From Dehalococcoidia bacterium (GTDB lineage: Bacteria; Chloroflexota; Dehalococcoidia; GIF9; AB-539-J10), in contig JAUWOR010000007.1 in NCBI GenBank assembly GCA_030612025.1, positions 15,104-79,103 on the forward strand: a DNA stretch of 64,000 bases, in the 5' to 3' direction. This document shows positions 6,151-40,399 of this stretch, piece by piece. The position numbers were made by a program, and so were the translations under genes. Position 1 is the first letter of the stretch. Every line of letters begins with the position of its first letter. The notes beneath the pieces are model-generated. The model was not told the origin of the DNA. It did no database searches and worked only from the letters and a program-made list of their open reading frames with translations.

Positions 6151-6176
6151 CAGTGGGCTTTAGCTAACGAAACCAA

Positions 6177-20589: not shown

Positions 20590-20708
20590 AGCAAACCCCC
20601 TCTAATTAGTAACCTTTCGTGCTATAATAATTTATATACTACTATAATTTACAGCAATTAAAAATTGCAATATGTGTCTTCGAAATAGAACTAACTAAAA
20701 AGAAAGGA

Positions 20709-20838
20709 GGGCGATTAAAAATGTAGTTGCCCAATTTATTGGGCGACTGTGCCTGATAAATCAGGCAACTACAAAAATTTGGCGGTGAGGCATCTCTAGA
20801 ATGCTCAAAATTGAACGAGAAGGTGAAATTAAACAGCC
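20709..20838 (+). repeat. MITE-like element, copy A (GGCTGTTTAA...TTAAACAGCC termini)
   Basis: About 85% identical to the copies at 28020-28207 and 36959-37088. It contains the GCCTGATAAATCAGGC hairpin and ends 27 nt before the glyA ATG with an AAGGAGG RBS in between. Confidence 0.7.
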
Positions 20839-20865
20839 TAAAGAAAGGAAGGAGGTAAGTTAAAG

Positions 20866-22104
20866 ATGGGGTACGAAAATTTGAAAAGAGGTGACAAGGT
20901 GGTTTATGCCACAATGCTGAAGGAGATAGAGAGAGTAAACACTGGTCTTGAATTGATACCTTCAGAGAATTTTCCTAGCGAAGCAACTCTTGAAGCGCTT
21001 GGCTCTGTTTTCAATGACAAGTATTCCGAGGGATATCCAGGTAAGAGATACTACGGGGGGAATAAGTTTATCGATGTTATCGAGAATCTAGCTATTGAAA
21101 GAGCAAAGAAGTTATTTGGAGCAGAGCATGTAAATGTCCAGCCATACTCCGGCAGTCCAGCTAACATGGAAGTTTATCTTGCTTTGATGAATCCTGGAGA
21201 TACCTTTATGGGAATGAAATTGGACCAGGGAGGACATTTAACTCATGGGCATAAGGTAAGTTTCACTGGTAAGCTATTCAATGCGGTTCAATATGGAGTA
21301 AATAAAGAGACGGAGCTATTAGATTATGACGAAATCAGAAAAACTGCTCTAGAGGTAAGACCCAAAATGATTGTTTGCGGGGCCACTGCTTATCCGCGTG
21401 AGATTGATTTCAAGGCATTTCATGAGATAGCAGCGGAAGTCGGAGCTATTTCCATGGCTGATATTGCTCATATTGCCGGGCTTATTGTTGGTGGTGTCCA
21501 TCAATCACCCTTTCCTTACATAGACGTGGTAACAACAACGACACATAAAACTCTTAGAGGCCCAAGAGGAGCAATGATAATGTGCAAAGAGAGATTTGCT
21601 AAAGATATAGACGAAACAGTTTTCCCTGGGATGCAGGGAGGACCACATGACCATGTTACAGCAGCAATGGCTGTTGCTTTTGGCGAAGCTCTAAAGCCGG
21701 AGTTTAAAAATTATGCCAGACAGATTATGAAAAATGCCAGAGCATTAGCGGAATCCTTAATGGAAAATGGTTTTAGGTTAGTAACTGGAGGGACTGATAA
21801 CCATTTAATCCTTGTTGATTTGCGGAGTAAAGGTGTTACCGGGAAAGAGGCGGAGACAGCCTTAGATATTGCTGGTATAACCGTAAACAAAAATACGATT
21901 CCATTCGATCCAAGAAAACCTTTTGATCCCAGTGGCATAAGATTGGGAACACCGACGGTAACAACCAGAGGAATGAGGGAAGCAGAGATGAAACAGATTG
22001 GAAATTTTATAACCGCGGCAATAGACGCGAAAGACAATCGGGAAAAGTTAGAAAAAATCCAACAGGAGGTTAAAGCATTATGTCAGCCATTCCCTGTATA
22101 TTGA
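20866..22104 (+). CDS. glyA: serine hydroxymethyltransferase
   Basis: PLP-binding region ([16 protein letters not shown]) and full SHMT length are present. Confidence 0.9.
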
Positions 22105-22150
22105 TGCTGGCCCTAATCTATTTAAGCCTCAGAAATTATTAGGAGGTAAA

Positions 22151-23194
22151 GTGAAAGATTGGGAAATGCGAGGAAAAGTTGCTCAGCATGTGTTTGAAAC
22201 AATAGGTTCTACACCATTGGTAAAACTCAATAAGGTAAGTCAAGGGATAAATGCTGATATTCTGGGGAAATTGGAGTGGTTTTCTCCCACTGGTTCGCTG
22301 AAGGATAGAATCTATTATCAGATGATTACGCAAGCAATAAAAAATCAGGAACTAAAACCGGGTATGGAAATTTTAGAAACTTCTACTGGCAATGCTGGAA
22401 TTGCTTGTGCCTTCGTAGGTGGTTTATTAGGTTATCCGGTAACGATTATTCTTCCTGATGGAATGAGTGCTGAGAGAGCAAAAATTATGCAAGCATATGG
22501 AGCAAAGGTTATCTATACTCCGGGCGCAGAATCAGACGTAGACCTCTGCCTAATAAAGCAGGAAGAAATTATAAGAGAAAACCCTGGGAAATATTGGGTG
22601 CCTAGTCAATACACTAACCAAAACAATGTTGTGGCCCATTACCTTACTACTGGCCCTGAAATTTGGGAACAAACGGAGGGTAAGGTGGATGCCTTTTTAG
22701 TTACTCAGGGAACAGGGGGGACAATTAGTGGGGTGGGAAGGTATTTGAGGGAGAGAAATCCTAAGATTTTGCTTTATGCTGGTGAGCCGTCTGAAGCACC
22801 AATGTTGGCCAGAAGAAAATGGGGCTCCCATCGGATCGAAGGTATCGGTGATGGGTTTGTTCCTCGAAATTTGGATGCGAGTTTACTCAATGGCGTCTTT
22901 CTAGTCACTTCGGAAGAAGCTATTGAAATGGGGAAGAAACTAGCTCGGGAGGAAGGCTTATTTTGTGGGATTTCTTCTGGGGCAAATGTAGTCGGGGCCA
23001 TTAAATTAGCTAAACGACATCCAGAACTTAAGGTAATCGTTACTCTGATTAACGATACAGGGCAGCGTTATTTCTCTACCCCATTATGTGGCGTTGAAAA
23101 GCACATTGAAATTCCAGAGAGGGAGCACCCATTTGATGATTATACTATTGCAGAACTTGATAAATACCAATCAGGTTGGGAGATTATAGAGTGA
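22151..23194 (+). CDS. cysteine synthase / O-acetylserine sulfhydrylase family PLP enzyme
   Basis: PLP-Lys motif (SLKDR), Gly-rich loop (GTGGTISG) and CysK/CBS-family length are present. Confidence 0.75.
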   Translation: MKDWEMRGKVAQHVFETIGSTPLVKLNKVSQGINADILGKLEWFSPTGSLKDRIYYQMITQAIKNQELKPGMEILETSTGNAGIACAFVGGLLGYPVTIILPDGMSAERAKIMQAYGAKVIYTPGAESDVDLCLIKQEEIIRENPGKYWVPSQYTNQNNVVAHYLTTGPEIWEQTEGKVDAFLVTQGTGGTISGVGRYLRERNPKILLYAGEPSEAPMLARRKWGSHRIEGIGDGFVPRNLDASLLNGVFLVTSEEAIEMGKKLAREEGLFCGISSGANVVGAIKLAKRHPELKVIVTLINDTGQRYFSTPLCGVEKHIEIPEREHPFDDYTIAELDKYQSGWEIIE

Positions 23195-23245
23195 GAAAAA
23201 GTTCTAACTTCTGTGGAAGACGTGCTAGGATAATAACTATTTAAA

Positions 23246-24538
23246 GTGTTTCAAAGTCAAGGAGGAGCAATGGAACCGGGTATAGAAGGCGAGGTTCTCA
23301 AACTTATTGAAAAAAGGCGAGATGCAATCGTTGAATTTCTGAGAGAATTAATATCTTTTCCTAGTGTGACAGGGGATGAGCTTGAAATTCAGAAGTTTAC
23401 TGCTCGCAATCTTGAAAGTATGGGTCTTGTAGTTGACAAGTGGGAGCCTGATCATGAGAAGCTGAAGAAACATCCTGCCTATGTACCGGTTGAATATGGA
23501 TACGCAAATCGCCCGAATGTGGTTGGAACATATAAAGGGACAGAAGGTGGGAAGTCTTTGCTTCTCAACGGTCATGTTGATGTTGTCCCTCCAGGGCCTT
23601 TAGATGCTTGGGAGCACCAACCATGGTCGGGAGATGTTGTGGGGAATCGGTTATATGGAAGAGGGGCTTCAGATATGAAAAGTGGTCTGGCTGCAATGAC
23701 AATGGCTCTTGATAGCTTAATACGTTTGGATATTAGCTTGAGAGGAGATGTAATTCTTGAATATGTGGTGGATGAAGAGCTGAGTGGGAATGGAACATTG
23801 GACTGTGTAATGAAAGGATATCATACTGATGCCGGTATTTGTTGTGAGAGTAGCAGCCTTCATGTTCAGCCAGCTTGCCTAGGGAGGATCTGGTTTGAAA
23901 TCTCTGTTCGGGGGAAACCAGCGGGGATCCAGAGAAGATGGGAAGGGGTAAATGCGATAGAGAAGGGATACGCAATTGTGCAGGTTGTTTCAAACCTTGA
24001 AGATATTAGGATCAATGAAGTGAGCCACCCTCTTTACCCTGAAAATCGAAGTGCGATCCCTTGCATGGTTGGTATGTTTCAATCTGGATCCTTTGCTAGT
24101 TCATTTCCTGATACTTGCTTGCTCAAAGGGAGTATCGCTTCTCTGCCTGGGGAAAACACAAATGAAGTAAAACAAAGTCTTGTTGAACAGATCTCGACTT
24201 TTTCAAAAACAGATCCTTGGCTCAAGGACAACCCACCTGAAGTTAAATTTGTTGGCTATTGTGGTGAGCCTGCTGAAATACCTCCGGATCATCCTATTGT
24301 CCGTACCCTAGCTCGAAGATTTGCCTTTGTTACTGGTAAACAGCCTCAGATCACCGGAAGGCAAGGAGCGGCTGATACCAGATATCTCATAAAATACGGC
24401 AATACACCGACAGTAATTTTTGGACCAGGTTTGACAGAACAGATGCATGCTACTAATGAGTGGGTAGATATTGATTATCTGGTTACTGCTACCAAGGTCT
24501 TGGCCTTATCTATCATGGACTGGTGTGGCTATGAATAG
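23246..24538 (+). CDS. M20 family metallopeptidase (ArgE/DapE-like)
   Basis: Metal-binding motifs (LLLNGHVDVVP; GRGASDMKSGLAAM) and a dimerisation domain are present. Confidence 0.75.
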   Translation: MFQSQGGAMEPGIEGEVLKLIEKRRDAIVEFLRELISFPSVTGDELEIQKFTARNLESMGLVVDKWEPDHEKLKKHPAYVPVEYGYANRPNVVGTYKGTEGGKSLLLNGHVDVVPPGPLDAWEHQPWSGDVVGNRLYGRGASDMKSGLAAMTMALDSLIRLDISLRGDVILEYVVDEELSGNGTLDCVMKGYHTDAGICCESSSLHVQPACLGRIWFEISVRGKPAGIQRRWEGVNAIEKGYAIVQVVSNLEDIRINEVSHPLYPENRSAIPCMVGMFQSGSFASSFPDTCLLKGSIASLPGENTNEVKQSLVEQISTFSKTDPWLKDNPPEVKFVGYCGEPAEIPPDHPIVRTLARRFAFVTGKQPQITGRQGAADTRYLIKYGNTPTVIFGPGLTEQMHATNEWVDIDYLVTATKVLALSIMDWCGYE

Positions 24539-24544
24539 AGATAG

Positions 24545-24762
24545 CCATAGTAACTACTTCAAGCAAGGCAACTCCTAACCTAGCAGCACCATTTTTTAAA
24601 GCTACCCGGGATACTTCCACAGCATCATGCCCATAGGCATTTGCCTTGACAATTGGCCATAATTTCGCAATTTTTGCCTACCACCTTCTTTATCATGCTA
24701 ACATTATGGCCTACGGCATCAAGGTCAATCTCTAGCCATGCCAACCCCTGGTTCTGCATTTA
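24545..24762 (-). pseudogene. duplicated 5' fragment of alanine racemase (alr) with frameshift
   Basis: The minus-strand translation MQNQGLAWLEIDLDAVGHNVSMIKKVVGKNCEIMA parallels the alr N-terminus (MQNLGPIWAEIDLDAIVSNIKAIRGLLGEKVKIMA). The DNA aligns to 20440-20589, with a 1-nt indel before the KANAYGHD codons. The fragment has its own GAGGAGG RBS. Confidence 0.55.
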
Positions 24763-24783
24763 TGCCCCTCCTCTTATTATCAG

Positions 24784-24816
24784 GGCTGTTTAATTTTGCC
24801 TCAGCTTCAAAATCTA
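24784..24816 (-). repeat. truncated terminal fragment of the MITE-like element
   Basis: GGCTGTTTAATTTTG plus a partial right end matches the TIR of the full copies. Confidence 0.4.
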
Positions 24817-24849
24817 CCCCGTGTAGTAATCTTCGCTACTACACAGGGC
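24817..24849 (+). repeat. perfect hairpin repeat (11-bp stem CCCTGTGTAGTA-like / 8-nt loop), copy 1
   Basis: CCCCGTGTAGTAATCTTCGCTACTACACAGGGC is identical to the copy at 24930-24962. A reverse-orientation copy is nested in MITE copy B at 28041-28072. Confidence 0.7.
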
Positions 24850-24929
24850 AGGTTCATCTTATCCAGTTTTAATAATCTTCACCCCAAAGATTCTCGTAGT
24901 GCGACCCTTTAGGGTCGTGCACGAGGCTA

Positions 24930-24962
24930 CCCCGTGTAGTAATCTTCGCTACTACACAGGGC
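24930..24962 (+). repeat. perfect hairpin repeat, copy 2
   Basis: This is the same 33-nt sequence as copy 1, in direct repeat 113 bp away. Confidence 0.7.
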
Positions 24963-24997
24963 CGAAGCCTCGCACTACATTTTTAAACACCCTTTTA

Positions 24998-26392
24998 TTA
25001 TCCTCTGTCAGACAAACCCTTGATAAGCCTATCAAGGGTTTCCTTGGCATCTCCCCACAGTAAAATAGCGTGTTTTTCTTTATAGAGAGGATTTTCTACT
25101 CCAGAGTAGCCAGGTCTTTCATCGAGATTACAGACCAATATGTTTTCTGCCTCAAAAACTTTCAGTATAGGCATGCCAGAGATAGGAGTTCCGGCAACTC
25201 TAATAGCAGATGGATTTACTACATCACAGGCGCCTACTGTCACCGCCACGTCTGTATTCTTAAAATCCTCATTTATAGCATCCATTTCCAGGAGTTTATC
25301 ATAAGGAACCCCAGCCTCGGCTAATAAAACATTCATATGCCCTGGCATTCTTCCCGCTACAGGATGAATGGCAAACCTTACCCTAGCCCCCCTTGCTTCC
25401 AGGATTTCTGCCAGCTCCCACACCTTGAATTGAGCTTGAGAAAGTGCCATTCCGTAACCAGGGGCAATAATGACTTCATCAGCCTCTTTTAGAATTTTCA
25501 AAGAAAAACTGAATTTGTCCTCTTCCGTCATTTCAGCTTCTTTTTTCAATTGCAAGGAATCCGGTTCCAGCCTCTTACCGCTCACTGGTGTGACTCCCAG
25601 CCCCAGAAAAACATTTGCTAAATTTCTGTTCATCGCCCGACACATTTTTTGGCTGAGTAAAATTCCCGAGGCTCCAACCATTGCCCCGCAAGCTACCAAT
25701 AAAGGATTTTGCGTTACAAAACCACACAAAGAGGCAGCTAGCCCTGATAAAGCATTTAAAAAACAAATAACAACAGGCATATCCGCTCCACCTATCCGAA
25801 TAGTAAAGATTACTCCTAGAGCAAGGGCGAAAGGTAACAAAATTATACCGTAGAGTAAGAAAGAGGTAAATCTTAGGTAGACGGCAAAAGCCCAATAGAG
25901 AATCAGGAGAAGAGCTATTCCTGAAGTTAGCCAGGAATGGTGAGGCAGGATTACTGGTTGTTGTTTCACTTTCCCACTTAGTTTACCGACAGCTATTAGG
26001 CTGCCGCTAAAGGTAAAAGAGCCCACAATGACCGCCCAGCCGCATATATACATATTCGCAGTTGTTGCCGGGTTTGCTGTCTCGGCTAGAGAAACCAGGC
26101 AAGAGGCAGCCCCCCCACATCCGTTTAGAAAAGCAACTAACTGGGGCATTTGAATCATCTTTACCTGGATGGCAAGCGCAGCTCCTATTATGCTGCCAAT
26201 GAGAAGAGCTACTGCCACAGAGCCAACGCCTAATAATTCCTGCTGAGCTAAAATTAATACAATCGCGGCTAACATAGCTATAGCAGCAATAATATTTCCC
26301 CAGCGCGCATATTCAGGGGAACTGAGAAGTCTTATCCCGGAGATTACTGCTACAGCAACAATTAGATAAAGATAAAAAATAGTAGAAGGCAA
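24998..26392 (-). CDS. pntB: NAD(P) transhydrogenase subunit beta
   Basis: A polytopic N-terminal domain is followed by a C-terminal NADP(H)-binding dIII domain (GYGMALSQAQ...VVNPSA). Confidence 0.85.
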   Translation of the reverse strand: MPSTIFYLYLIVAVAVISGIRLLSSPEYARWGNIIAAIAMLAAIVLILAQQELLGVGSVAVALLIGSIIGAALAIQVKMIQMPQLVAFLNGCGGAASCLVSLAETANPATTANMYICGWAVIVGSFTFSGSLIAVGKLSGKVKQQPVILPHHSWLTSGIALLLILYWAFAVYLRFTSFLLYGIILLPFALALGVIFTIRIGGADMPVVICFLNALSGLAASLCGFVTQNPLLVACGAMVGASGILLSQKMCRAMNRNLANVFLGLGVTPVSGKRLEPDSLQLKKEAEMTEEDKFSFSLKILKEADEVIIAPGYGMALSQAQFKVWELAEILEARGARVRFAIHPVAGRMPGHMNVLLAEAGVPYDKLLEMDAINEDFKNTDVAVTVGACDVVNPSAIRVAGTPISGMPILKVFEAENILVCNLDERPGYSGVENPLYKEKHAILLWGDAKETLDRLIKGLSDRG

Positions 26393-26396
26393 CGCT

Positions 26397-26678
26397 TTAT
26401 TCTTTCCCCTTGCTTTTTCCTTTTTTAAACATAGCTAGCATTCTTCCAGTGACAAGAAAACCACCAACCACGTTTACCATTGCCAGAACTATGGCTACCA
26501 TGGCTAAGGATTTGCTGGAGGTAGTGGCAGCAACAGCAACAGCTATGAGAGCACCTAAAACTGTGACTCCTGAAATAGCATTGGTTCCAGACATCAATGG
26601 AGTATGCAGCAGGGAAGGTACTTTGGTAATAACCCAGTATCCTATAAGGCCCGAAAGAATAAAGACAAGAACAAGCAT
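26397..26678 (-). CDS. pntA: NAD(P) transhydrogenase subunit alpha part 2 (membrane)
   Basis: This 93-aa protein of 3-4 TM helices sits between pntAA and pntB. Confidence 0.75.
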   Translation of the reverse strand: MLVLVFILSGLIGYWVITKVPSLLHTPLMSGTNAISGVTVLGALIAVAVAATTSSKSLAMVAIVLAMVNVVGGFLVTGRMLAMFKKGKSKGKE

Positions 26679-26712
26679 AGATTTTAGCTTTAAATTATAG
26701 TTCTCTCAGGGT

Positions 26713-27891
26713 TTATTTAACTTCCTCCATAGCCTTTAAAGTGCCCTGGTGAACTATTTTCCCATCAATGGTAACCAAAGCTTTTTTAACAATCTCATCT
26801 TCTTGGTCTATCTTGAGTTCCTTAGCTTTAATCAGCGAATCAAGAAAGTTAGAAATATTGGTAGCATAAAGCCTGGTAGAATCCCTAGGCATCCTACCAG
26901 GTATGTTTGCTATCCCACTTATGAGGACATCGTGTTCCCATATCTGCTTTCCGTGTTGAGTGAGACTACAATTCCCCCCTTGATCTATAGCCACATCACA
27001 GATGATGGAACCCTTTTTCATTCCTGTTATCATTTCTCTAGTAATGAAAACTGGAGCTCTTTCACCAGGAATCAAGGCAGCGCTTATCACTATGTCAGAC
27101 TCCTCAACCAGGGGTACTAGAGCCTCTTTCTCTTTTTCTAGCCACTCCTCAGGCAAAGCTTTAGCGTATCCTCCTTCCCCTATGGCTAAATCTGGAGGAA
27201 CATCAAATCCGACAACTTTCGCCCCAAGACTAGCTGCTTGCTCCCGGGCATCAGGTCGAATATCTACAGCAGAAACAACCCCTCCTAATCTTTTAGCCGT
27301 AGCTATAGCCTGAAGTCCTACTATACCCGTCCCGATTATCAAAAATTTGGCTGGTTCTATCATACCAATGGCAGTCATGGTCATAGGAATAAACTTAGGA
27401 AAACAATTAGCCGCCATTATAGCTGACTTATATCCGGCAACTGTGCTCATCGAGGTTAAAGCATCCATCTTCTGAGCTCGAGTTATTCTGGGAATGCTAT
27501 CCATGGTGAAAGAAATTATTTTTCTATCCCTAATCTTTTTGACCATCTCGTGATTGGTAGGAGAAGCAGGATGGAGAAAAGAAATAAGGACGGTGTTTTC
27601 CTTCATCATATCAATTTCGTGCTTATTTTTTTCGTGATTATATAAGGGCTCTTTAACCTTTAAAATTACGTTGGCCCTATCATAAAGGGCTTCCACATCA
27701 TCTATGATTTCAGCCCCGGCTATCCTGTATTCCTCATTCCCAAAAAGGGCACCTTCTCCAGCCGATTTTTCTACCAGCACCTTGATTCCCATTTCTACAT
27801 ACTTCTTGCAAGTAGAAGGGATTGCTGATACTCTTTTTTCACCCTCCATTATCTCTTTTGGTATTCCCAGCACAATCTCTTTTGAATACAC
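26713..27891 (-). CDS. pntA: NAD(P) transhydrogenase subunit alpha part 1 (dI, AlaDH/PNT family)
   Basis: An NAD-binding Rossmann fold (GTGIVGLQAIATAKRLGG) and AlaDH/PNT N-terminal domain are present. Confidence 0.85.
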   Translation of the reverse strand: MYSKEIVLGIPKEIMEGEKRVSAIPSTCKKYVEMGIKVLVEKSAGEGALFGNEEYRIAGAEIIDDVEALYDRANVILKVKEPLYNHEKNKHEIDMMKENTVLISFLHPASPTNHEMVKKIRDRKIISFTMDSIPRITRAQKMDALTSMSTVAGYKSAIMAANCFPKFIPMTMTAIGMIEPAKFLIIGTGIVGLQAIATAKRLGGVVSAVDIRPDAREQAASLGAKVVGFDVPPDLAIGEGGYAKALPEEWLEKEKEALVPLVEESDIVISAALIPGERAPVFITREMITGMKKGSIICDVAIDQGGNCSLTQHGKQIWEHDVLISGIANIPGRMPRDSTRLYATNISNFLDSLIKAKELKIDQEDEIVKKALVTIDGKIVHQGTLKAMEEVK

Positions 27892-28019
27892 CTTCTACCT
27901 CCTTTTGCGTCAATTTTTACAATTATATACCCCGATGGCAGTAAATTCTAGGCTCTATTGGCTCTATACTGAATTTTGTAGAAAATGGTAAGGTGGTAAG
28001 AACCACAGAGACAAAAAGG

Positions 28020-28207
28020 GGCTGTTTAAAAATGTAGTTGCCCTGTGTAGTAGCGAAGATTACTACACAGGGCGACTGTGCCTGATAAATCAAGCAACTT
28101 TGGCCCTCCATTCATTAAGGCCTGATAAATCAGGCAACTACGAAAATTTGGGAGTGAAACACCTCCGAGATGGCTGAAATTGAACGGGGAATCAAAATTA
28201 AACAGCC
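28020..28207 (+). repeat. MITE-like element, copy B (with nested hairpin repeat and internal partial duplication)
   Basis: The termini and core match copy A. The 33-nt hairpin is inserted in reverse orientation and the CCTGATAAATCA(G/A)GCAACT segment is duplicated. It lies about 195 nt upstream of the co-oriented gene at 28402. Confidence 0.7.
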
Positions 28208-28401
28208 ACCGCGGGTGTGGAACTTGTGCCTCTCCACTCAAGATTGACTAAGCAGGCTGAGGCAGAAGCCCTAGGCCTTTATAAGGCAAGAAAAAAGAAC
28301 GCCGGGGCTCCAATAAACCACTACCTTGGTAATGAACTCTTGGCACAAAAACTGCGGAATTTTGACTAAGGCCCGCCTAATTAGTTAAATTATAAGTATA
28401 A

Positions 28402-29232
28402 ATGGCAGATTTACTCTTTGGTCCGGCAGGAGTTTCACTAAGCGCTAAGGAACGCTCCACAGAAAGTGGCATCCAACGCGTTGCTGAGCTAGGTTTAGGA
28501 TGTATGGAGCTGGAATTCGTCCGAGGGGTGAAGATGAGCGAAAGGAGTGCTCTAGCTATAGGGCAACTAGCCAGAGAAAAGGGAGTGGCACTCAGTGCCC
28601 ACGCTCCTTACTTCATAAACCTTAATGCTCAAGAGTTAGAGAAGATAAGAGCTAGTCAAGAAAGGTTGCTTCACACTGCTCGAATTGCCTCCCTGTGTGG
28701 TGCTAGAAGTGTGGTTTTTCACGCCGCCTATTATCTAAGTGACCCACCAAATAAAGTTTATGACACGGTGAAGAGACAACTACAGGAGGTAACAAACAGA
28801 CTAAGAATGGAAAGCAATAGAATTTGGATTAGACCGGAGAACACCGGGAAAGTTAGCCAATTCGGCACCCTAGACGAGGTGATAAAGCTAAGCAAAGAAA
28901 TTGAGGGAATAACCCCTTGCATCGATTTCGCTCATTGGCATGCTCGAACAGGGAATTTCAATTCCTACCCTGAATTTACTGCTACCTTGGAACAAATAGG
29001 AAACAAACTGGGAAGAGCAACCTTGGATAATATGCACATACATGCCTCGGGAATAGCCTATGGGGAAAAAGGCGAAATTAAACACTTAAATATGAAAGAA
29101 TCCGACTTCAATTATGTTGACCTAGTTAAAGCCTTGAAAGATTATAAGGTTAAAGGATTGGTTATCAGTGAAAGTCCCAACCTAGAAGAAGATGCCCTCC
29201 TTTTACAGGAGACTTACAATTCCTGTATGTGA
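28402..29232 (+). CDS. endonuclease IV-like / xylose-isomerase-like TIM-barrel protein (AP endonuclease family 2)
   Basis: Nfo-like motifs are present: SAHAPYFINLNA, ENTGK and CIDFAHWHARTGNF (compare E. coli CIDTCHAFAAGY). Confidence 0.65.
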   Translation: MADLLFGPAGVSLSAKERSTESGIQRVAELGLGCMELEFVRGVKMSERSALAIGQLAREKGVALSAHAPYFINLNAQELEKIRASQERLLHTARIASLCGARSVVFHAAYYLSDPPNKVYDTVKRQLQEVTNRLRMESNRIWIRPENTGKVSQFGTLDEVIKLSKEIEGITPCIDFAHWHARTGNFNSYPEFTATLEQIGNKLGRATLDNMHIHASGIAYGEKGEIKHLNMKESDFNYVDLVKALKDYKVKGLVISESPNLEEDALLLQETYNSCM

Positions 29233-29299
29233 TGCTTCGCTACTTCCAGCAATTTTTTCCATTTATAGTGTTTGTGCTATAATAAACGTGAGTTAAACT

Positions 29300-31132
29300 A
29301 TGAAACCGAAATCGTGGCCCAATAGCCTTGTCTACTTACTACTTCTAGCAGTGATAGTAGCCACTGTATTTGTTTTTTTACCAAGCAGTGGTAAACCTCA
29401 AGAGGTAGGAATTACCGAATTCATCACCTACATTAAACAAGGGGAAATTGACCATATCGTGCAGAAGGAAAACACCCTTACTGGTTCGTATGGTGAAGAG
29501 GAAAGATATACTGCCGACTATTATGGCACTACCAATGACCTGGTGGCTATCCTTAGCGATAACGGAGTTAACGTCGGCGAAGGTGGGATAAGCCTCGATG
29601 TTAAAGCTAGCGGCATTGATTGGGGAATGATAGCCCTGCAAATCCTCTTACCAATTATGTTGATTGGGGCGTTATTCTATTTTTTATTCCGCTCAGCCCG
29701 TGGAGCCGGCACGCAAGCCTTCAATTTTGGTAAAAGCCGCGCCCGACTAAGTTCCGGCAATAAACCTACGGTAACTTTTGCCGATGTCGCTGGAACTGAG
29801 GAGGCCAAAGAAGAGGTTCAAGAGGTGGTGGATTTTCTCAAATCACCCCAGAAATTCCGCACATTGGGGGCTCGCATCCCTCGAGGTGTGCTCCTAGTAG
29901 GACCGCCAGGGACAGGCAAAACATTGCTGGCTAAAGCTATAGCTGGGGAGGCCAATGTGCCTTTTTACTCCATTAGCGGCAGTGAATTTGTGGAGATGTT
30001 TGTCGGCGTTGGCGCTGCTAGAGTCAGGGACCTTTTTGAGCAAGCCAAACGTAACTCACCATGCATAGTTTTTATGGATGAAATTGATGCCGTAGGCCGA
30101 CACCGTGGCGCTGGCTTGGGTGGAGGACATGATGAAAGAGAGCAAACTCTAAATCAAATCCTATCTGAGATGGATGGCTTTGACACCAATACTAACATTA
30201 TTGTCCTGGCTGCCACCAATCGTCCCGATATTCTCGATCCAGCCTTACTACGCCCTGGCCGCTTTGATCGTCATATCGTCGTCGATTTACCTGATATCAA
30301 TGGCCGCAAAGCTATTTTAGAAGTACATGCCAAGGGCATGTCCCTGGCCAAAGAAGTCAACCTGGAAACAGTAGCTAAGGGAACACCTGGTTTTAGCGGC
30401 GCTGACCTAGCCAGCCTAATTAACGAAGCAGCTATTTTGGCTGCTAGACGCAACCGCAAAGATATTAGCTTAAAGGAGCTAGAGGATGCTGCCGATCGAG
30501 TTATCGCTGGGCCTGAGAAAAAAAGCCGGGTAATCATCCAGAAAGAAAAGGAAATAATCGCCTATCATGAAAGTGGACATGCTCTGACAGCCAGGATGTT
30601 GCCCAATGCTGACCCGGTGCACAAAGTTTCCATTATTGCTCGAGGAGTAATGGGAGGCTGGACGCGCTTCTTACCAACCGAGGACCGCTATTTATGGAGC
30701 CGCTCTCAATTTGATGACAGATTAGCAGTAAGCTTAGGTGGACGGGTTGCCGAGGAAATCAGCTTTGGAGAAATAACTACCGGGGCACAAAATGACTTAG
30801 CCGAGGCAACTAAATTAGCCCGGAGGATGGTTACTGAATACGGGATGAGCGATAAATTGGGACCGCGAACTTTCGGGCAAAGACAGGAACTTGTTTTCTT
30901 AGGTCGCGAGATTAGCGAGCAAAGAGATTACAGCGATAAGACAGCTCAAAAGATAGATGAAGAGGTACACGATATTATTCAGCGTGCCTATAATACTGCC
31001 AAGAAAATACTGACCAAAAACAAAGCCAAACTAAAGCAAATCGCTGAGGAACTCATCGCTCACGAAACTCTGGAGGAACCAGCGCTCAATAAGCTATTTG
31101 AAGGATTAACACCACAAACAGCCTCCAGCTAA
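29300..31132 (+). CDS. ftsH: ATP-dependent zinc metalloprotease FtsH
   Basis: Two N-terminal TM helices are followed by an AAA+ Walker A (GPPGTGKT), an SRH region and a zinc-binding HESGHAL. Confidence 0.9.
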
Positions 31133-31165
31133 AAGGTTTTGTTAACTTCTTCTGCCCTTACCTCA

Positions 31166-32848
31166 CTAATAAGCTACATGGCCAACTTGGCTGGCTTCTT
31201 GAGCAATAACACTATCATCCAGCTTAACAAATAGTGGCTGGGGCTGGCGAAGTTTCTGCCCCGGCACTGGCGACTGAAGCTTCCAACCTGCCTCACTGAC
31301 GCTCCCCACAAAGCCAAGAGAAGTGTGGAGCTTCTCAGAGCTAAAGGGAAGAAAGGGGTAGAAAGCAGTCTTTAAAACTGATAATACGGACAAGACAGTA
31401 TAGGCAGACTTGGCCGAGGTTTCTGGGGATTTTTTAATCGTTTTCCAGGGAGCCTGGTCATCAAGATACCGATTAGCTTCTTGAGCCAAGAACATAATCT
31501 GTCTAATCGCTTCTCTGAAACTACAGCGATAAAGCGCTCTATCAACATCGCTTAGAGTAGTCTCAGCCTTATGAAGCAACCCCTGGCTTTGCTCATCAAG
31601 TTCGCCTGGCGCGGGCACCATTCCGTTGAAATTGCGATAAGCAAAAGTAAGGATACGATGCGCTAGGTTACCATAAGTAGCTACCAGCTCATCGTTATTG
31701 CGGCGAACAAATCTATCCCAAGAAAAATCGCTATCCCTGGCCTCAGGCATATTTATGGATAAAATGTAGCGCAGAGGGTCCGGGTCATATCTCTCCAGAT
31801 AATCAGGTAGCCAAACTGCCCAATTCCGGCTGGTGGAAAGCTTCTTGCCTTCAATAGTTAAAAATTCATTGGCGGGAACATCGTAGGGAACATTTAATCC
31901 GCCATAGCCTATCAGCATCGCTGGCCAGATTAAGGTATGGAAAAAAATGTTGTCCTTGCCGATGAAATAAAAACTCTTGGACTCCCCTGTCCAAAAAGGT
32001 TGCCAAGCTGCGTCATCGCCATGCAGCTTTGCCCACTCTTTACTGGCTGACAAATAACCAATAACTGCCTCAAACCAGACGTAAATTCGCTTCTGCTCAA
32101 AGCCCGATTGCGGCACAGTCACTCCCCAATCTATATCACGGGTTATAGCCCTATCCCTTAATCCTTCATGCAAAAATTTCCAAGTGGTGCTAAGTACATT
32201 ATGCCGCCAGTGAGACTGCTCTTTTATCCATGCCGTCAATTTATCCTGAAAAGAAGTAAGGCGTAGGAAAAAGTGCTCCGAGGTCTCAAACCGCGCTGGG
32301 GCGCCACAAAGATAGCAGCGAATATTCTCAAGCTCTGAGGGATTTAAAGGTTTACCACATTCATCACATTGATCGCCTCGCGCTTTGGGAAAGCTGCAAT
32401 AAGGACATGTACCCTCAAGATAACGGTCAGGAAGAAACCTCTGGCACTTAGGACAGTAAGCCTGAAGCATCTTATCCTTGTAAATATAGCCATTATTGAG
32501 CAAAGTAAGAAATATATCATGCGTAACCTGAGCATGATTTGCAGTGCCTGTAGTAGTAAATAAGTCAAAGGAGATGCCCAATTTTTGCCAGCAATCGATA
32601 AATTGCTGATGATATTTAGATGCTATTTCCTGTGGCGACTTGGATTCCTGCTCAGCTCGAATAGTAATGGGTGCTCCGTGCTGATCACTCCCTGAAACCA
32701 TTAGCACATCGTCGCCTTTGAGGCGATGATAACGAGCAAAAATATCTGCTGGCAAATAAGCCCCGGCAATATGTCCTAAATGTAAAGAACCATTGGCATA
32801 AGGCCAAGCAACACCTATAAAGATACGCTCACTCAAGAAAGCCTCCAA
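31166..32848 (-). CDS. metG: methionine--tRNA ligase
   Basis: A HIGH-type motif (HLGHIAGAYL), the zinc knuckle cysteines (CPKC...CPYC...CDEC...CYLC) and a KMSKS-like KLSTS are present. Confidence 0.9.
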   Translation of the reverse strand: MEAFLSERIFIGVAWPYANGSLHLGHIAGAYLPADIFARYHRLKGDDVLMVSGSDQHGAPITIRAEQESKSPQEIASKYHQQFIDCWQKLGISFDLFTTTGTANHAQVTHDIFLTLLNNGYIYKDKMLQAYCPKCQRFLPDRYLEGTCPYCSFPKARGDQCDECGKPLNPSELENIRCYLCGAPARFETSEHFFLRLTSFQDKLTAWIKEQSHWRHNVLSTTWKFLHEGLRDRAITRDIDWGVTVPQSGFEQKRIYVWFEAVIGYLSASKEWAKLHGDDAAWQPFWTGESKSFYFIGKDNIFFHTLIWPAMLIGYGGLNVPYDVPANEFLTIEGKKLSTSRNWAVWLPDYLERYDPDPLRYILSINMPEARDSDFSWDRFVRRNNDELVATYGNLAHRILTFAYRNFNGMVPAPGELDEQSQGLLHKAETTLSDVDRALYRCSFREAIRQIMFLAQEANRYLDDQAPWKTIKKSPETSAKSAYTVLSVLSVLKTAFYPFLPFSSEKLHTSLGFVGSVSEAGWKLQSPVPGQKLRQPQPLFVKLDDSVIAQEASQVGHVAY

Positions 32849-32930
32849 ATTTAGCTTTCAGCTCTCAGTCTTCAGCTATCAACTGTCAAGTAACATCTGA
32901 CCACTGAGTGCTGACCGCTTCTTATCATGC

Positions 32931-33134
32931 CTAGTCCTCAGGGAAAAAGGTGATTATTTTCTCTCCCTTTTCCGTCTTATAGGAAGCATAACCGCGGCTT
33001 AAGCAGCAATCAAGACAAAAACGTTGACTCTGCTCCCCCACATCATCAGCCACTAAATAACGCTCACCATATTCCAGAAATCTATGACAGATGTCGCATT
33101 GCACTTTGCTTATAGCGATACAGCCACAACGCAA
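32931..33134 (-). CDS. small Cys-rich hypothetical protein (zinc-ribbon-like)
   Basis: A 67-aa ORF with CxC...CxxC...CxxCC spacing. There is no other support. Confidence 0.35.
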   Translation of the reverse strand: MRCGCIAISKVQCDICHRFLEYGERYLVADDVGEQSQRFCLDCCLSRGYASYKTEKGEKIITFFPED

Positions 33135-33308
33135 TTTAATCTCCTTCAGCAGGCTTTGTCCAGCCTGCTACAAACTTCGCTTCCCATTAAAGGTATAAGA
33201 CGCCTAAGAAGGTATCACCCTGTCGTCCACCAATAGCAGCGGTGAAAATAGGCAAAAACAAACATAGCCGATAATTATAGCCCTTAATTACAATTCCATC
33301 CACCCGTC

Positions 33309-33337
33309 TTGACTCCAAACTGTCACCCTTGTATAGT
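33309..33337 (+). promoter_or_regulatory. sigma70-like promoter upstream of the IMPDH-family gene
   Basis: TTGACT is followed by an exact 17-nt spacer and TATAGT. The predicted TSS lies about 26 nt before the ATG at 33370. Confidence 0.5.
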
Positions 33338-33369
33338 TTACAACAATTATCTCTCCGAAGAAGAAAAAA

Positions 33370-34515
33370 ATGCCTCAGCTTAAATTCAAAGAAATGGTGC
33401 CAACATATGGGTTTGACGACGTAGCCCTTGTCCCTGGCGATGTAACCATCAACCCTGACCAGACAAATATAGATTTTATTATTGGTAATTTTAAATTCTC
33501 CATCCCCATCCTAGCCTCAGCCATGGATGCTGTTGTTGATCCCACCTTAGCCATCAAGTTTGGCAAACTGGGAGGCCTAGCTGTCCTCAACCTCGAGGGA
33601 GTACAGACAAGGTATGAAAATCCTGACGAAATTCTGGAGCAAATTGCTCAAGCTCTGGAAATCGAGGTTACTTCTCTGCTGCAAAAGATTTACTCCGCAC
33701 CTATTAAGGAAAATCTTATCGCTGACTGCATCAGCAAGGTCAAACAAGGAGGCGTCACCTGTGCCGCCTCACTAACCCCAGCCAATACCAAACGACTAGC
33801 TCCAATAGCCAAGGAAGCCGGGATTGACGTGCTAGTAGTGCAATCTACAATTACCACCGCCAAGCATATCTCCAAGAGCTACCGAGGGCTTATCTTGTCC
33901 GAATTATGCCAGATGCTGTCCTTGCCCATCATAGTGGGCAACTGCTGCAGCTATAGCGCCGCATTAGAGTTGATGAGAACAGGGATTGATGCCATTTTAG
34001 TCGGCGTCGGTCCTGGAGCTGCCTGTACCACCAGAGAAGTCATCGGCGTTGGCGTTCCCCAGATAACTGCCACCATGGATTGCGCTGCTGCTAGAGAGAC
34101 TTATTTTAAAGAGGGTGGTAAATATGTATCAGTCATAACTGATGGAGGCATTCGCATTGGCGGTGACTTGTGTAAAGCATTTGCCGCTGGCGCCGATGCT
34201 GTCATGGTTGGTTCACCACTAGCTCAGGCTACGGAGGCTCCGGGTAGAGGTTATCATTGGGGTATGTCTCAGCCTCACCCAGTATTGCCTAGAGGGACAC
34301 GTATCAAAGTTGGCACCGCTGCTCCCTTAGAACAAATTCTCTTCGGACCCACTACTGTTACCGATGGGACGCAAAACCTGGTTGGTGCCTTGCACACCAG
34401 CATGGGAATCTGCGGTGCTCGAACCATTAAAGAAATGCATAAAGTTAAGATGATCATTGCTCCAGCTATAAAGACAGAAGGAAAATACTTCCAGGCAGCC
34501 CAAAGTATTCCTTGA
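33370..34515 (+). CDS. IMP dehydrogenase/GMP reductase family protein (no CBS pair)
   Basis: An IMPDH-type TIM barrel with an active-site Cys loop region and the [23 protein letters not shown] motif is present. The 381-aa length is consistent with a CBS-less family member. Confidence 0.65.
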
Positions 34516-34518
34516 TTT

Positions 34519-35133
34519 TTAAAGAAACGCACTAATACAAAACCAGACTCCAAAGCCAACCAGTACAAAAGCACAAACACTAAACACAACTCTCTGCACC
34601 TTTCGTGTCCACCACTTCCTCGACTTAAACGTACCCGCAGAGAGAACTTCATACCAGGTTAAATCGCAAAGCCAGTGCACCAAGGTGAAAAGAGCAATGC
34701 CAATAAGCCCAAACCTGGTAGCGCCAACTATCAGGACTATGCCTATAGTCACCCACCATATATAAAAAGCGGGGTTGGCTCCCGTGATCACAATGCCAGT
34801 GACTAAAGAACTAGTTGGCAGCCCGCCTATTTCTCCAACCGCATTGCCAGCAGTTCGAAACACCCGGAAACCCAGGTAAAATAACATCAGGCCGCCCACT
34901 ATATATATAACCTTCACAACCTGCGGAGAGCCGATGAGATGCCCCAACCCCAAATAAATTGCTGCTATGAGCGGTATCTCGATGACAGCATGCCCTACGG
35001 CAATCAAGGCACCGGCATTTTTATCACCATAACCTTTGGCTATTGTGGCGGCAGTAAGTGGCCCTGGCAGCATAACACCAGTAAGGGAAATACCAACTGC
35101 CGATAATAGAAATAAACCAAGGTTTGTCTCCAT
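34519..35133 (-). CDS. LysE/RhtB-type amino-acid exporter-like membrane protein
   Basis: The 204-aa protein has 6 predicted TM segments and an N-terminal LPGP-containing helix typical of LysE-superfamily translocators. Confidence 0.5.
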   Translation of the reverse strand: METNLGLFLLSAVGISLTGVMLPGPLTAATIAKGYGDKNAGALIAVGHAVIEIPLIAAIYLGLGHLIGSPQVVKVIYIVGGLMLFYLGFRVFRTAGNAVGEIGGLPTSSLVTGIVITGANPAFYIWWVTIGIVLIVGATRFGLIGIALFTLVHWLCDLTWYEVLSAGTFKSRKWWTRKVQRVVFSVCAFVLVGFGVWFCISAFL

Positions 35134-35161
35134 AATTTATTGGGGCAAATGCAGATTTAGG

Positions 35162-35923
35162 CTAGATTTCCTCCTCTTCCTCCTCCTCAGCAGTTATGTC
35201 CCCTCCATAATGAGGAAGCACCACACCCACCTTGCCTCGTCGGTGTTTAGCCCTTTTAGGCAGATTATCAATCATTTTCCTTAATTCTGTGAATGCTTCT
35301 ACTGGCTGTGCTGGCGGAATAACTATGCCATCCATCCCAGCCTCCCATAAATTACCGAGCTCGGCACTGGTGATCAGTGAAGGTAAAGTTACCACAAGCG
35401 GCTTATCCAATAGCTCACTGAACCTTCGGCAAATGAGCAGATATTCCACAGTAATAAATGACTCCTCGCCTCTGTTAATAAACACACCGTCTATCTCAAG
35501 AGCATTAATAGCTCTAACCAAGCCCTGATCCAACGAAGGTTCTATCACCAGAAATTTACCCGCCCCTTCTCCTCGCAGTGCTGCCACAGATGCCTTCATA
35601 TCAAAAACTACAAAGTCGCAGCCTGAGTCAACAAGCTCAGCAGCCCTCTTTTTGCTCATCCCCTTTATAACCACTCCCAGAGGAATATCGCCCATAGCCT
35701 TGACCATTTCCTTCAGGCTTTCGACCTTGGAATTTTGCTTCAATATCAGCCCAGCATCCACATTGCTACCAGTTAAGGCATCAGCTTCCTTGACATCTAC
35801 CCCAGCCAACCCGGCAACAAGCAACATCGGTGAGCTTTTCAGTTTGCTGGCAGCCGCATGGAAACCTATGGGTGATGCTGAAGACTTGGAAAGGTTATGC
35901 AATTTATCCACAAATTTGCTCAT
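35162..35923 (-). CDS. hypothetical protein with poly-Glu C-terminal tail (EEEEEEEI)
   Basis: The start was reassigned to the internal Met (MSKFVDKL), because the upstream part of the track ORF is a read-through of the tRNA. The body looks like alternating beta/alpha (TIM-barrel or Rossmann-like). Function is unknown. Confidence 0.5.
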   Translation of the reverse strand: MSKFVDKLHNLSKSSASPIGFHAAASKLKSSPMLLVAGLAGVDVKEADALTGSNVDAGLILKQNSKVESLKEMVKAMGDIPLGVVIKGMSKKRAAELVDSGCDFVVFDMKASVAALRGEGAGKFLVIEPSLDQGLVRAINALEIDGVFINRGEESFITVEYLLICRRFSELLDKPLVVTLPSLITSAELGNLWEAGMDGIVIPPAQPVEAFTELRKMIDNLPKRAKHRRGKVGVVLPHYGGDITAEEEEEEEI

Positions 35924-35935
35924 CTTACCCCCAAA

Positions 35936-36006
35936 GCCAGCGGTCGGATTCGAACCGACGACCGGCGGTTTACGAAACCGCTGCTCTACCCCTGAGCTAC
36001 GCTGGC
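35936..36006 (-). tRNA. tRNA-Thr (anticodon CGT)
   Basis: A hand-folded cloverleaf shows acceptor GCCAGCG/CGCTGGC, a D-arm GCTCAGGGGTAGAGC, anticodon stem-loop GCGGT-TTCGTAA-ACCGC and T-arm GTCGG-TTCGAAT-CCGAC. CCA is not encoded. Confidence 0.85.
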
Positions 36007-36372
36007 ACGAGATTAGTATAGCTGATGAGATAGGCTCTGACAAACGGTCTTACTAAAATCGCCAAAGCTACTCAGATAGGGGAGTTGAACAACGGTTTTC
36101 TCTAAAACAGACTTCAGAATGATGGGCACACCAATCTATATATAGCGTCCTAAATAATTGCGCATAGACCCTTCAGGCTGAGCCCTCAGGACGAAGTCCT
36201 GTGCAGGGATTAAATCCTAAGCAATATCTAAATTCAAAGATAAAAAATCAAAATTACAAATCAAAGCTCAAAATTAAAATTGCGGGCGCTCTTGACCATC
36301 TATTTTGAATTTTGCTCTGTCATTTTTCCTTTTGCATTTTGATACTTGAATTTATTTAGAATTTGCCCGTAT

Positions 36373-36933
36373 TCATTCCTCTATAGTTATTCGCATTATG
36401 GTGTCACCCTGTTCAATTTTTTCCAGGATATCCCTTCCCTCTATTAGCTGACCAAAGACTGAGTGCTCACCATCAAGGTGATGCTGGGGTGTATAAGTAA
36501 TGAAGAACTGGCAGCCATTGGTATTAGGTCCAGAATTAGCCATTGATAGGGCACCGGCAACATGGGTATGCTCGGTGAATTCATCAGCAAAGGAATAACC
36601 AGGAGTGCCAGTTCCAGTTCCCGTAGGGTCTCCCCCTTGAGCCATAAAGCCCGGTATTACACGATGGAATGTGGTACCGTCGTAAAACCCCTCGCGGGCA
36701 AGGAAGACAAAGTTGTTGACAGTTACTGGAACATCACTAGCGAACAGCTCCAGCACTATATTCCCCTTTTCTGTCTGAATGGTAGCAATGTATTGCTTAC
36801 TGGAATCAATTGTCATCGGTGGTGAGGCTGAGTAAGTTTTAGGCTTTGGCTCTCCACCAGCACATGACGTCGAAAGAAGTGCTAGCAGAACCAAGATGAT
36901 GCCAGCTATTCGGAACAGACCGCCAGTTGTCAT
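36373..36933 (-). CDS. ppiB: peptidyl-prolyl cis-trans isomerase, cyclophilin type, secreted/lipoprotein
   Basis: Cyclophilin motifs ([15 protein letters not shown]; [17 protein letters not shown]) follow an N-terminal signal. The start was moved to MTTGGLF because the track ORF N-terminal extension overlaps MITE copy C. Confidence 0.8.
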
Positions 36934-36958
36934 AAGCTTGCCTCCTTCTTTATTATAA

Positions 36959-37106
36959 AGCTGTTTAATTTTGATTCTCCGTTCAATTTCAGCCATCTCA
37001 GAGGTGTTTCATCCCCAAATTTTTGTAGTTGCCTGATTCATCAGGCACAGTCGCCCAATAAATTGGGCAACTACATTTTTAAACAGCCTTTCTTATAAGG
37101 CTGTTT
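36959..37106 (-). repeat. MITE-like element, copy C (reverse orientation) with extra terminal hairpin
   Basis: The reverse complement matches copies A and B end-to-end. It ends 25 nt upstream of the ppiB ATG with an AAGGAGG RBS, and an additional AAACAGCC-loop-GGCTGTTT hairpin sits at its distal end. Confidence 0.7.
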
Positions 37107-37788: not shown

Positions 37789-37887
37789 TGCATCTTAATC
37801 ATTTCTCAGAGGCATATTCTGCCTGGAGAAACTCACGGCTATCGAATCTGCCACAACATTGAATTTTAGCACGAATTCTACTAGCTA

Positions 37888-40330: not shown

Positions 40331-40399
40331 TGCAACGATATTCGGCAGAAATAAAGAGAGGGTAGTCAGGTCTGGCACTACCTCAGCTAAAGCGCTGCA

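Follow-up and report, generated by a model that had tools for sequence, protein, structure and literature searches.

A short inverted-repeat element with GTAG palindromes that lies in one orientation beside Shine-Dalgarno motifs in Dehalococcoidia

Results

A repeated element beside GGAGG motifs

The window analysed here, a stretch of 64,000 nt of contig JAUWOR010000007.1 from a Dehalococcoidia bacterium, holds four complete copies (A, B, C and D) of a short repeated element. Their neighbour genes were assigned by Pfam to alanine racemase, serine hydroxymethyltransferase (glyA), a pyridoxal-phosphate enzyme, M20 peptidase, pntB/pntA, an AP-endonuclease-2/xylose-isomerase-like protein, cyclophilin (ppiB) and HepT toxin, and the genes downstream of the copies are functionally unrelated. 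The number of copies follows from a reading of their coordinates together with an alignment that includes the flanks; the boundaries were fixed by aligning the window copies and flanks, and later by adding some 150 copies found in other genomes. The family is composite, part miniature inverted-repeat transposable element (MITE) and part REPIN (an inverted pair of repetitive extragenic palindromes, REPs), and is new for the Dehalococcoidia lineage. All four window copies inserted beside a GGAGG motif with the right end facing the motif, as A, C and D adjoin one and the ortholog of B in the metagenome-assembled genome (MAG) WJOY01 retains AAGGAGGGAGG.

Position and orientation were followed in two samples of copies from other genomes, each independently anchored at one end only. 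The genome-collection sample, gathered by matches to the left-end 18-mer, has 46 non-redundant copies, 39 of them with a recognisable right end, and the metagenome-contig sample, gathered by matches to the right-end 20-mer, has 111 right ends, 71 complete copies and 77 left ends. In the genome sample a Shine-Dalgarno (SD) motif and the start codon of an open reading frame (ORF) of at least 50 codons lie 15–30 nt past the right end in 23/39 copies and past the left end in 0/39, and an SD-like (GGAGG-like) motif is first met at offset 9–13 at 27 of the 46 right ends compared with a single one of the 46 left ends. In the metagenome sample such a motif stands at offset 9–13 in 58/111 right ends (mode 11, n = 29; 12, n = 14), compared with 3/77 left ends and 3.8% of random positions in the same contigs. 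The base composition past the right end is A-rich from +1 to +11, followed by a G-rich block from +12 to +16, and position −1 of the element is G in 31/46 copies. Some of the apparent misses are still gene starts, namely priA without an SD (locus L023) and rplU with an unusual start codon (L099). The original prediction had noted that the three copies then recognised all share the orientation of the downstream gene and had placed two of them directly 5′ of its ribosome-binding site. As the pattern holds in both samples, where position and orientation are clearly non-random, what was seen in three of three window copies is a general property of the family.

The element abuts the SD even where an upstream spacer of hundreds of nucleotides existed (copy A in the window; L034, L072, L086 and L088), and the motif that it adjoins is not always a translation start. 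At L090, which is the same locus as L205 in the metagenome set, 11 nt separate the element end from a tRNA-Ser gene beginning GGAGGGG, and several copies abut, at the same offset, other repeats that start GAGAGGGG or GGGGGTGG. Many insertion sites are operon junctions made up of a stop codon, an A-rich spacer, GGAGG and ATG, since in about 12 of the 46 copies the stop codon of the preceding gene, itself co-oriented, lies at most about 20 nt from the start of the element or inside it; the left end of the element offers TAA at positions 9–11 and TAG at 17–19. The upstream neighbour is divergent in 8/46 copies, and 5/46 lie between convergent genes.

Anatomy and predicted folding

The ends of the element are 11-bp inverted repeats, AGGSTGTTTAA and TTAAACAGCCT (11–12 bp counting (G)AGGSTGTTTAA), which are conserved across copies, and the modal length is 132 nt in both samples; the element is short and non-coding as in MITEs. 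Its 5′ half, GTAGTTGCCCAATTTATTGGGC-GACTGT-GCCTGATAAATCAGGCAACTAC, consists of two inverted palindromes of ~22 nt, each headed by GTAG, and the pair folds into one long hairpin. The 3′ domain is a non-palindromic stretch of ~65 nt (...AAAATTTGGGGGTGAAACACCTCTGAGATGGCTGAAATTGAACGGGGAATCAAAATTAAACAGCCT), in which RNAalifold predicts a single small conserved hairpin, UGGGGGU/ACCUCYR. The GTAG-tagged imperfect palindromes present are 20–40 nt long (GTAGTTGCCCAATTTATTGGGC, GTAGTTGCCTGATTTATCAGGC as the reverse complement, GTAGTGCGAGGCTTTAGCCYCG and GTAGTGCGACCCTTTAGGGTCG). A second type of GTAG doublet (type 2), GTAGTGCGAGGCT..AGCCTCG / CGACCC..GGGTCGCACTAC, is found in D and in some copies elsewhere, and a third kind of palindrome, a GTAG hairpin of 32–35 nt (CCCTGTGTAGTAGCGAAGATTACTACACAGGG), is nested once in B and twice in D.

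Whole-element minimum free energies range from −41 to −46 kcal/mol, with z-scores of −4 to −7, and RNAalifold retains the long hairpin in all 21 canonical copies. The original prediction had proposed a thermodynamic fold and a look for compensatory changes between copies; the fold is strong, and covariation was almost absent: double changes occur in 2/28 pairs, with a covariation term of −0.43, among the 21 copies, whose selection by an invariant 18-mer limits variation.

An ATG located 39 nt from the right end and reading out through it occurs in 54/93 copies. The corresponding stop codons are scattered over positions −26 to +186, counted from the gene start, and only 6/20 fall within −5 to +1, which disfavours a conserved upstream ORF (uORF) with translational coupling. 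In A this ATG opens a uORF of 20 codons (20801-20863, +) whose TAA lies 2 nt before the glyA ATG, and in C (36996-36934, −) it shares the frame of ppiB, which it lengthens by 21 codons, the mechanically listed ORF having 207 aa instead of 186 aa. At the Rfam gathering score only tRNA-Thr qualifies in the window, and a relaxed search of the A region returned chance-level eukaryotic hits alone. We rejected a known RNA family (riboswitch or leader) on the lack of a relevant Rfam match and the unrelated downstream genes, and attC sites, CRISPR and group II introns were ruled out on anatomy (housekeeping genes in mixed orientations, no arrays, no intron domains).

Spread and signs of mobility

Among the matches listed, at least 80 left-end matches with the hairpin come from at least 25 species-representative MAGs of Dehalococcoidia/Dehalococcoidales, and the non-redundant copies, more than 150 in number, have unrelated genes as neighbours and are spread over at least 25 species-level MAGs. 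Copy A is bordered on both sides by AAAGAAAGG, a 9-bp direct repeat without mismatch. In the genome sample the longest word shared by the two flanks of a copy has a mean of 5.39 nt, compared with 3.57 ± 0.16 nt for shuffled pairings, and words of 6 nt or more are shared in 46% of the 46 copies vs 6% when shuffled; for the 71 complete metagenome copies the shared word is 5.03 vs 3.68 ± 0.11, with exact 8-mers as the best cases. In the two samples flank similarity lies about 12 standard deviations above shuffled pairings. The flank repeats are A/T-rich, 8–9 bp long and differ from copy to copy. At glyA the window carries the element, as do relatives whose amino-acid identity is 95%, but those at 84–88% do not. 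The description as a MITE-like family is upheld by the terminal inverted repeats, the flank repeats above shuffles, the hundreds of dispersed copies in many species and the lineage-specific presence at glyA. The inverted ends and flank duplications also exclude palindromic elements derived from IS200/IS605 (palindrome-associated transposable elements, PATEs), which have subterminal hairpins and insert 3′ of a fixed tetra- or pentanucleotide but have neither inverted ends nor target duplication.

The copies of the window

All copies of the original prediction exist where it put them (Table 1); the left-end 23-mer is found three times and the central hairpin 22-mer four times, vs none in shuffles. 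Some details changed: each end of the element extends one base beyond the position first given (AGG...CCT), and the shared termini are inverted ends as described except that the left terminus of A is GGGCGATTAA, not GGCTGTTTAA (3 mismatches). A supposed fragment at 24784-24816 is in fact the right end of D, a complete fourth copy.

From its right end A lies 26 nt from the ATG of glyA (20866) and C 24 nt from that of ppiB (36933), in agreement with the distances reported before, and in both GGAGG begins 12–13 nt past the element end. The right end of D is 23 nt 5′ of a co-oriented ATG, which GAGGAGGGG precedes, and the pntB stop codon (24998-25000) is 4 nt from its left end. The ATG past D starts a frameshifted alanine-racemase fragment (24540-24759, −); as this is only 75% identical at the DNA level to the intact alr (19432-20589), we rejected a recent duplication of the alr 5′ end. 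In relatives (L104–L106) the second alr paralog is longer and is called as fragments of 77 aa and 234–254 aa. Copy B had been placed upstream of and co-oriented with an endonuclease-IV-like gene; the orientation is correct, but this AP-endonuclease-like gene is 193 nt away, with no adjoining ribosome-binding site in the window. In WJOY01 the ortholog of B is followed by an 8-nt flank repeat, GAAAAAAG, then by AAGGAGGGAGG and the remnant of an 11-codon ORF, and relative to this ortholog the right flank of B is deleted in the window.

Table 1. Element copies and associated features of the window (position 1 is the first letter of the window)
Feature	Position	Strand	Description
Copy A	20708-20839	+	canonical, 132 nt; left end AGGGCGATTAA (variant), right end TTAAACAGCCT
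Copy B	28019-28208	+	190 nt; canonical element with nested hairpin 28041-28072 and 40-nt internal duplication (28080-28101 / 28120-28141)
Copy C	36958-37089	−	canonical, 132 nt
Copy D	24783-24993	−	complete but divergent, 211 nt; both termini kept
Left flank repeat of A, AAAGAAAGG	20699-20707	+	target-site duplication; 9/9 identical to 20840-20848
Right flank repeat of A, AAAGAAAGG	20840-20848	+	then AA, then GGAGG 20851-20855, then glyA ATG 20866
Flank repeat of C, TATAAGAA / TATAATAAAGAA		−	GGAGG at 36945-36941; ppiB ATG at 36933-36931
Right flank of D		−	flank repeat GATAATAA, then GAGGAGGGG, then ATG 24759-24757 of alr pseudogene
Double palindrome of A	20723-20772	+	GTAG...CTAC, REPIN-like; GTAGTTGCCCAATTTATTGGGC and inverted GTAGTTGCCTGATTTATCAGGC; one long hairpin
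Nested GTAG hairpin in D 3′ domain	24817-24848 (to 24851 with TAG)	−	CCCTGTGTAGTAGCGAAGATTACTACACGGGG, 35 nt with TAG
Second nested GTAG hairpin in D	24930-24961	−	within loop of first palindrome
Solo end-like sequence, AGGCTGTTT	37098-37106	+	8 nt from left end of C; 9-bp inverted repeat with it
−10-like box TGCTATAAT	20620-20628	+	upstream of A; candidate glyA promoter element
−10-like box TACTATAAT	20640-20648	+	upstream of A; candidate glyA promoter element

The solo end-like sequence beside C may be the remnant of an abutting copy. A genuine right-end/8-nt/left-end junction is present there (37081-37106), the sole one found in 0.8 Mb of DNA examined, and tandem end-to-end junctions were rejected as a general feature.

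Changes after insertion

At the glyA locus the relative (L104–L106, 95% identical glyA) has the same junctions as the window, including the odd GCGATT left end of A and the right end GAAATTAAAC, with an interior of ~100 nt of the other type, that is, a type-2 doublet and a different 3′ domain. At the D locus the swap runs in the opposite direction, the window having type 2 and WJOY01 (L074, WJOY01000023.1) type 1 between flanks that are ~99% identical. Because junctions and flanks are conserved while the interior type differs at these two orthologous loci, the copies exchange interiors, probably through gene conversion at edges that are conserved, TTTAAAAATGTAGT and ACTACRARAAT. The elements are also hotspots for nested insertions.

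The window copy of D has an extra 35-nt GTAG hairpin (24817-24851) that is absent from WJOY01 and is thus a recent insertion, and at the B locus the nested hairpin (28041-28072) is inverted between the window and WJOY01. By these comparisons the small GTAG hairpins are currently mobile, which hints at an active REP-type system alongside the transposon, and the arrangement indicates a small palindromic element, active recently, that inserts into hairpin loops.

An AT-rich repeat (...CTAAGCACTAAATACGAAAT...TTTGGTATTTGAATTTGGAATTTAGAATTTGTTTAGAG...) is often found within the element just past the double hairpin (L090, 2226-2400; L007, L018, L030, L096, L101 and L102), and in other MAGs some element copies are interrupted or adjoined by GTCATTSYGAGG and CGCAATGAC motifs, which are similar to the dispersed repeat family with TTCTTCGCGGAG and GAAGCGAAGGGCTCAGAATGACA described below for the window.

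Discussion

We favor, with moderate confidence, the explanation that the element is a non-autonomous transposon of ~132 nt whose insertion is directed, in one orientation, to sites adjoining the SD motif and which is co-transcribed, forming part of a leader or an intercistronic hairpin. Its adjacency to the SD is most likely better explained by target-site choice than by function, because the spacing peaks sharply at 11–12 nt even though long upstream spacers were available, and because old orthologous copies decay in their ends and hairpins while covariation is almost absent. The same spacing at the tRNA-Ser gene and at G-rich repeats that are not translation starts argues for recognition of a DNA motif at insertion and not for selection on translation alone.

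We suggest that a transposase supplied in trans would pick, in a fixed orientation, an A-rich 8–9-mer followed after about 3 nt by a DNA motif of the GGAGG type, and that it may take the GGAGGTG...ATG start region for the element's own left end, GAGGSTGTTTAAAAATG. The duplication would keep the ribosome-binding site intact, so that the insertion could be tolerated, and a host promoter would transcribe the element within the 5′ leader or intercistronic spacer, which would add a stable hairpin and no promoter. After insertion the copies would exchange interiors by gene conversion and gain further small GTAG hairpins. Selection probably reinforces the orientation, since in reverse the hairpin would directly precede AUUUUUAAA and be terminator-like, compared with AAAAAUUUGG in the observed orientation. 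This terminator-like character is read from the hairpin tail; a simple scan of the A, B and C regions, which cannot score a long branched stem, called no canonical intrinsic terminator in either orientation. More tentatively, the insertion machinery may read the SD motif (GGAGG) as DNA in an oriented way and colonise translation-initiation regions and operon junctions class-wide, which could place a swappable hairpin cassette before dozens of genes per genome. Regulatory exaptation of some copies is possible.

Several points weigh against oriented targeting by a transposon. When the inverted ends are nearly identical, the transposases that act on them normally allow insertion both ways round; an orientation bias of 100% needs unusual asymmetric target capture or selection, and the data fit both. 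Asymmetric capture and selection against the reverse orientation would be two non-exclusive accounts of the strict orientation. About 30–40% of the copies do not lie beside a GGAGG motif, and the tRNA-Ser case is one locus. The flank repeats are often imperfect or offset by 1–3 nt, and the duplication length is given as 8 or 9 bp. No exactly alignable empty site was found, the DNA upstream of glyA in the element-free relatives being unalignable, and only the nested 35-nt hairpin, not the whole element, was cleanly polymorphic for presence and absence. Furthermore, no autonomous partner or transposase-size ORF was found between matching ends placed 0.5–4 kb apart in 1.6 Mb of DNA. Every matching end pair considered as a candidate partner enclosed ordinary metabolic genes; later screens required a large ORF.

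Alternatively, the element could insert without targeting and survive only where a sense hairpin just 5′ of a ribosome-binding site is useful. As an exapted RNA element it could stabilise or insulate the downstream cistron, protect the upstream 3′ end, or modulate translation via the GGGGGUG / CACCUCY (SD-like / anti-SD-like) hairpin. We regard this as unlikely, although copies are kept at orthologous loci across species (a macro-domain gene, L001/L003; the 'MAELLEVRWHG' gene, L005/L009/L088) and at the glyA, alr-fragment and B loci between the window and L104/L074, and although the double hairpin persists even when its sequence type is swapped. The small conserved hairpin predicted in the 3′ domain and the position of the hairpin directly before AUUUUUAAA in the reverse orientation would also be in keeping with such a role. 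Survival alone would hardly give so sharp a spacing peak where long spacers exist, nor the same spacing at a tRNA gene and non-coding G-rich repeats; in addition, the decay of old copies (e.g. L009 vs L005/L088), the near absence of compensatory changes and the functionally unrelated downstream genes speak against a conserved RNA function. The structured 5′ leader of the original prediction holds as a description, in that a hairpin of −30 to −45 kcal/mol would be transcribed, but not as the cause of the SD adjacency.

A further alternative, which we think improbable, is that the unit is a mosaic like the bacterial interspersed mosaic elements (BIMEs) built from REPs, mobilised either by a REP-associated tyrosine transposase (RAYT) or through recombination among its copies, in which case the inverted ends would be the outer arms of a larger palindrome hosting the GTAG doublet. 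The single-strand transposition of IS200/IS605 and RAYT enzymes (HUH/tyrosine chemistry) creates no flanking direct repeats, whereas in the present family such repeats bound the whole unit. A crude screen of ORFs in 1.6 Mb for the HUH...Y motif, a heuristic and not a hidden Markov model search, applied to partial genomes, found no RAYT-like ORF, which is weak evidence against a REP/BIME origin. MAG assemblies tend to lose insertion sequences, and for this reason neither the missing transposase nor the missing RAYT weighs heavily. A mosaic of this kind would account for GTAG palindromes in inverted pairs of two interchangeable sequence types, for the third GTAG hairpin of 32–35 nt that one of two ~99% identical loci has and the other lacks, and for the lack of a DDE transposase partner in 1.6 Mb, and a precedent exists in the GTAG dimers within longer palindromic repeats of Anabaena variabilis (PMC3733652). 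On the other hand, REPs are located mostly 3′ of genes, where the flanking ORFs are convergent or unidirectional (PMC3733652), and not beside ribosome-binding sites; the copies studied here lie just upstream of ribosome-binding sites, with few between convergent genes.

That the element carries an outward-facing promoter for the downstream gene, as first proposed, is highly improbable: most copies are indeed co-oriented with and near that gene, and the copies with a divergent upstream neighbour need a promoter somewhere 5′ of it, but a consensus scan found no sigma-70-type −35/−10 pair within or leaving A, B or C (Dehalococcoidia promoters being poorly characterised), TTGAAC in the 3′ domain has by reading no −10 partner at 16–18 nt, the right end is merely 11–12 nt from the SD, the ~12 copies that start near or contain an upstream stop codon have a typical intra-operon position, and good −10 boxes, conserved in the ortholog, lie upstream of the element at glyA. 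These boxes (TGCTATAAT and TACTATAAT) were read from the sequence, and the simple scan called no full −35/−10 pair at them. A Correia-like promoter-bearing repeat was rejected likewise, with no −35/−10 hexamers in or across the ends of A, B and C.

Transposases of the IS911/IS30 type insert beside sequences resembling their own inverted repeat, which results in an oriented arrangement of right end, spacer and left-end-like sequence. The present element could be compared with this, as its right end is followed by ~11 nt and then by GGAGGTG...ATG resembling the left end GAGGSTGTTTAAAAATG; unlike in IS30/IS911, with their junctions of 2–3 bp, the spacer is longer, and one genuine junction was found in 0.8 Mb. 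Correia elements, which are MITEs of Neisseria, duplicate a TA target, carry a promoter and integration host factor (IHF) sites and occur in both orientations, whereas the element described here has 8–9-bp duplications, no promoter consensus, and a fixed orientation and GGAGG spacing. Mycobacterial interspersed repetitive units (MIRUs) lie between the cistrons of operons in a single orientation, as tandem minisatellite-like units with overlapping stop and start codons, and we know of no reported spacing to the SD for enterobacterial repetitive intergenic consensus sequences (ERICs, or intergenic repeat units, IRUs); unlike the element, neither of these is known to contain GTAG doublets. The likenesses are that Correia elements are abundant inverted-repeat sequences of ~100–150 nt, often co-transcribed and forming hairpins in mRNA (PMC3049150), and that ERIC/IRU and MIRU are transcribed intercistronic repeats with an orientation-dependent effect or location (ERIC orientation effect: PMC3049150). 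Pneumococcal repeats show the usual enrichment between convergent genes (PMC3049150).

The super-family of GTAG REPs is defined by GTAG-tagged palindromes and their doublets (Di Nocera et al. 2013, PMC3733652). Like the REPINs and BIMEs of Proteobacteria, which are presumed to be mobilised by RAYTs, the 5′ half of the element is an inverted pair of ~22-nt GTAG palindromes that forms one long hairpin, and like them it is high-copy, extragenic and co-transcribed with neighbour genes (PMC3733652). It differs from them in that the doublet is only one part of a larger unit, which has inverted ends of its own, a ~65-nt 3′ domain and flank repeats, and in that this unit lies upstream of ribosome-binding sites in one orientation, with no RAYT found. 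In Anabaena variabilis, GTAG-15 dimers are regularly nested in longer palindromic repeats bounded by inverted repeats (PMC3733652), an arrangement that the element shares, although it has another sequence and occurs in another phylum, and neither flank duplications nor an association with ribosome-binding sites is reported in Anabaena (PMC3733652). In full-text literature searches neither a study of Dehalococcoidia MITEs or REPs nor a report of a bacterial MITE with SD sequences as its target came up.

Small bacterial repeats usually lie downstream of genes or between convergent genes and are inserted in either orientation. If targeting to the SD is true, it would represent a target specificity not described before for any bacterial MITE and a new kind of target recognition, by a transposase or an end-mimicry mechanism that reads GGAGG, and it would amount to a natural genome-wide rewiring of 5′ leaders and intercistronic regions. 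The tolerance of the compact genomes of Dehalococcoidia for many intra-operon insertions would then be explained as well, and the family would provide natural leaders with and without a hairpin for studies of mRNA stability and translational coupling in an uncultured lineage. We point out that the element creates in-frame upstream ATGs and lends stop codons to upstream genes, and can thereby mislead gene callers.

Other features of the window

A small palindrome, AAAACAGCTTAAATCGACTTTAAGCAGGGTGTTTAAC, at 5221-5263 has arms resembling the element ends and may be a related or degenerate mini-element. Another dispersed repeat family, present in both orientations (...TTCTTCGCGGAG..., ...GAAGCGAAGGGCTCAGAATGACA...), is found at 5246-5397, 6113-6153, 57938-58029 and 63363-63478. 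Unrelated to the element is a 228-nt direct repeat (37887-38114 and 40399-40626), whose two copies are 95% identical, lie 2.5 kb apart and hold the palindrome CTCCCTCCCCTAGCGGGAGGGAG. Finally, a tRNA-Thr gene (CGT; 35935-36006, −) lies inside a mechanically listed ORF of 293 aa (35162-36043), which is therefore probably spurious over this stretch.

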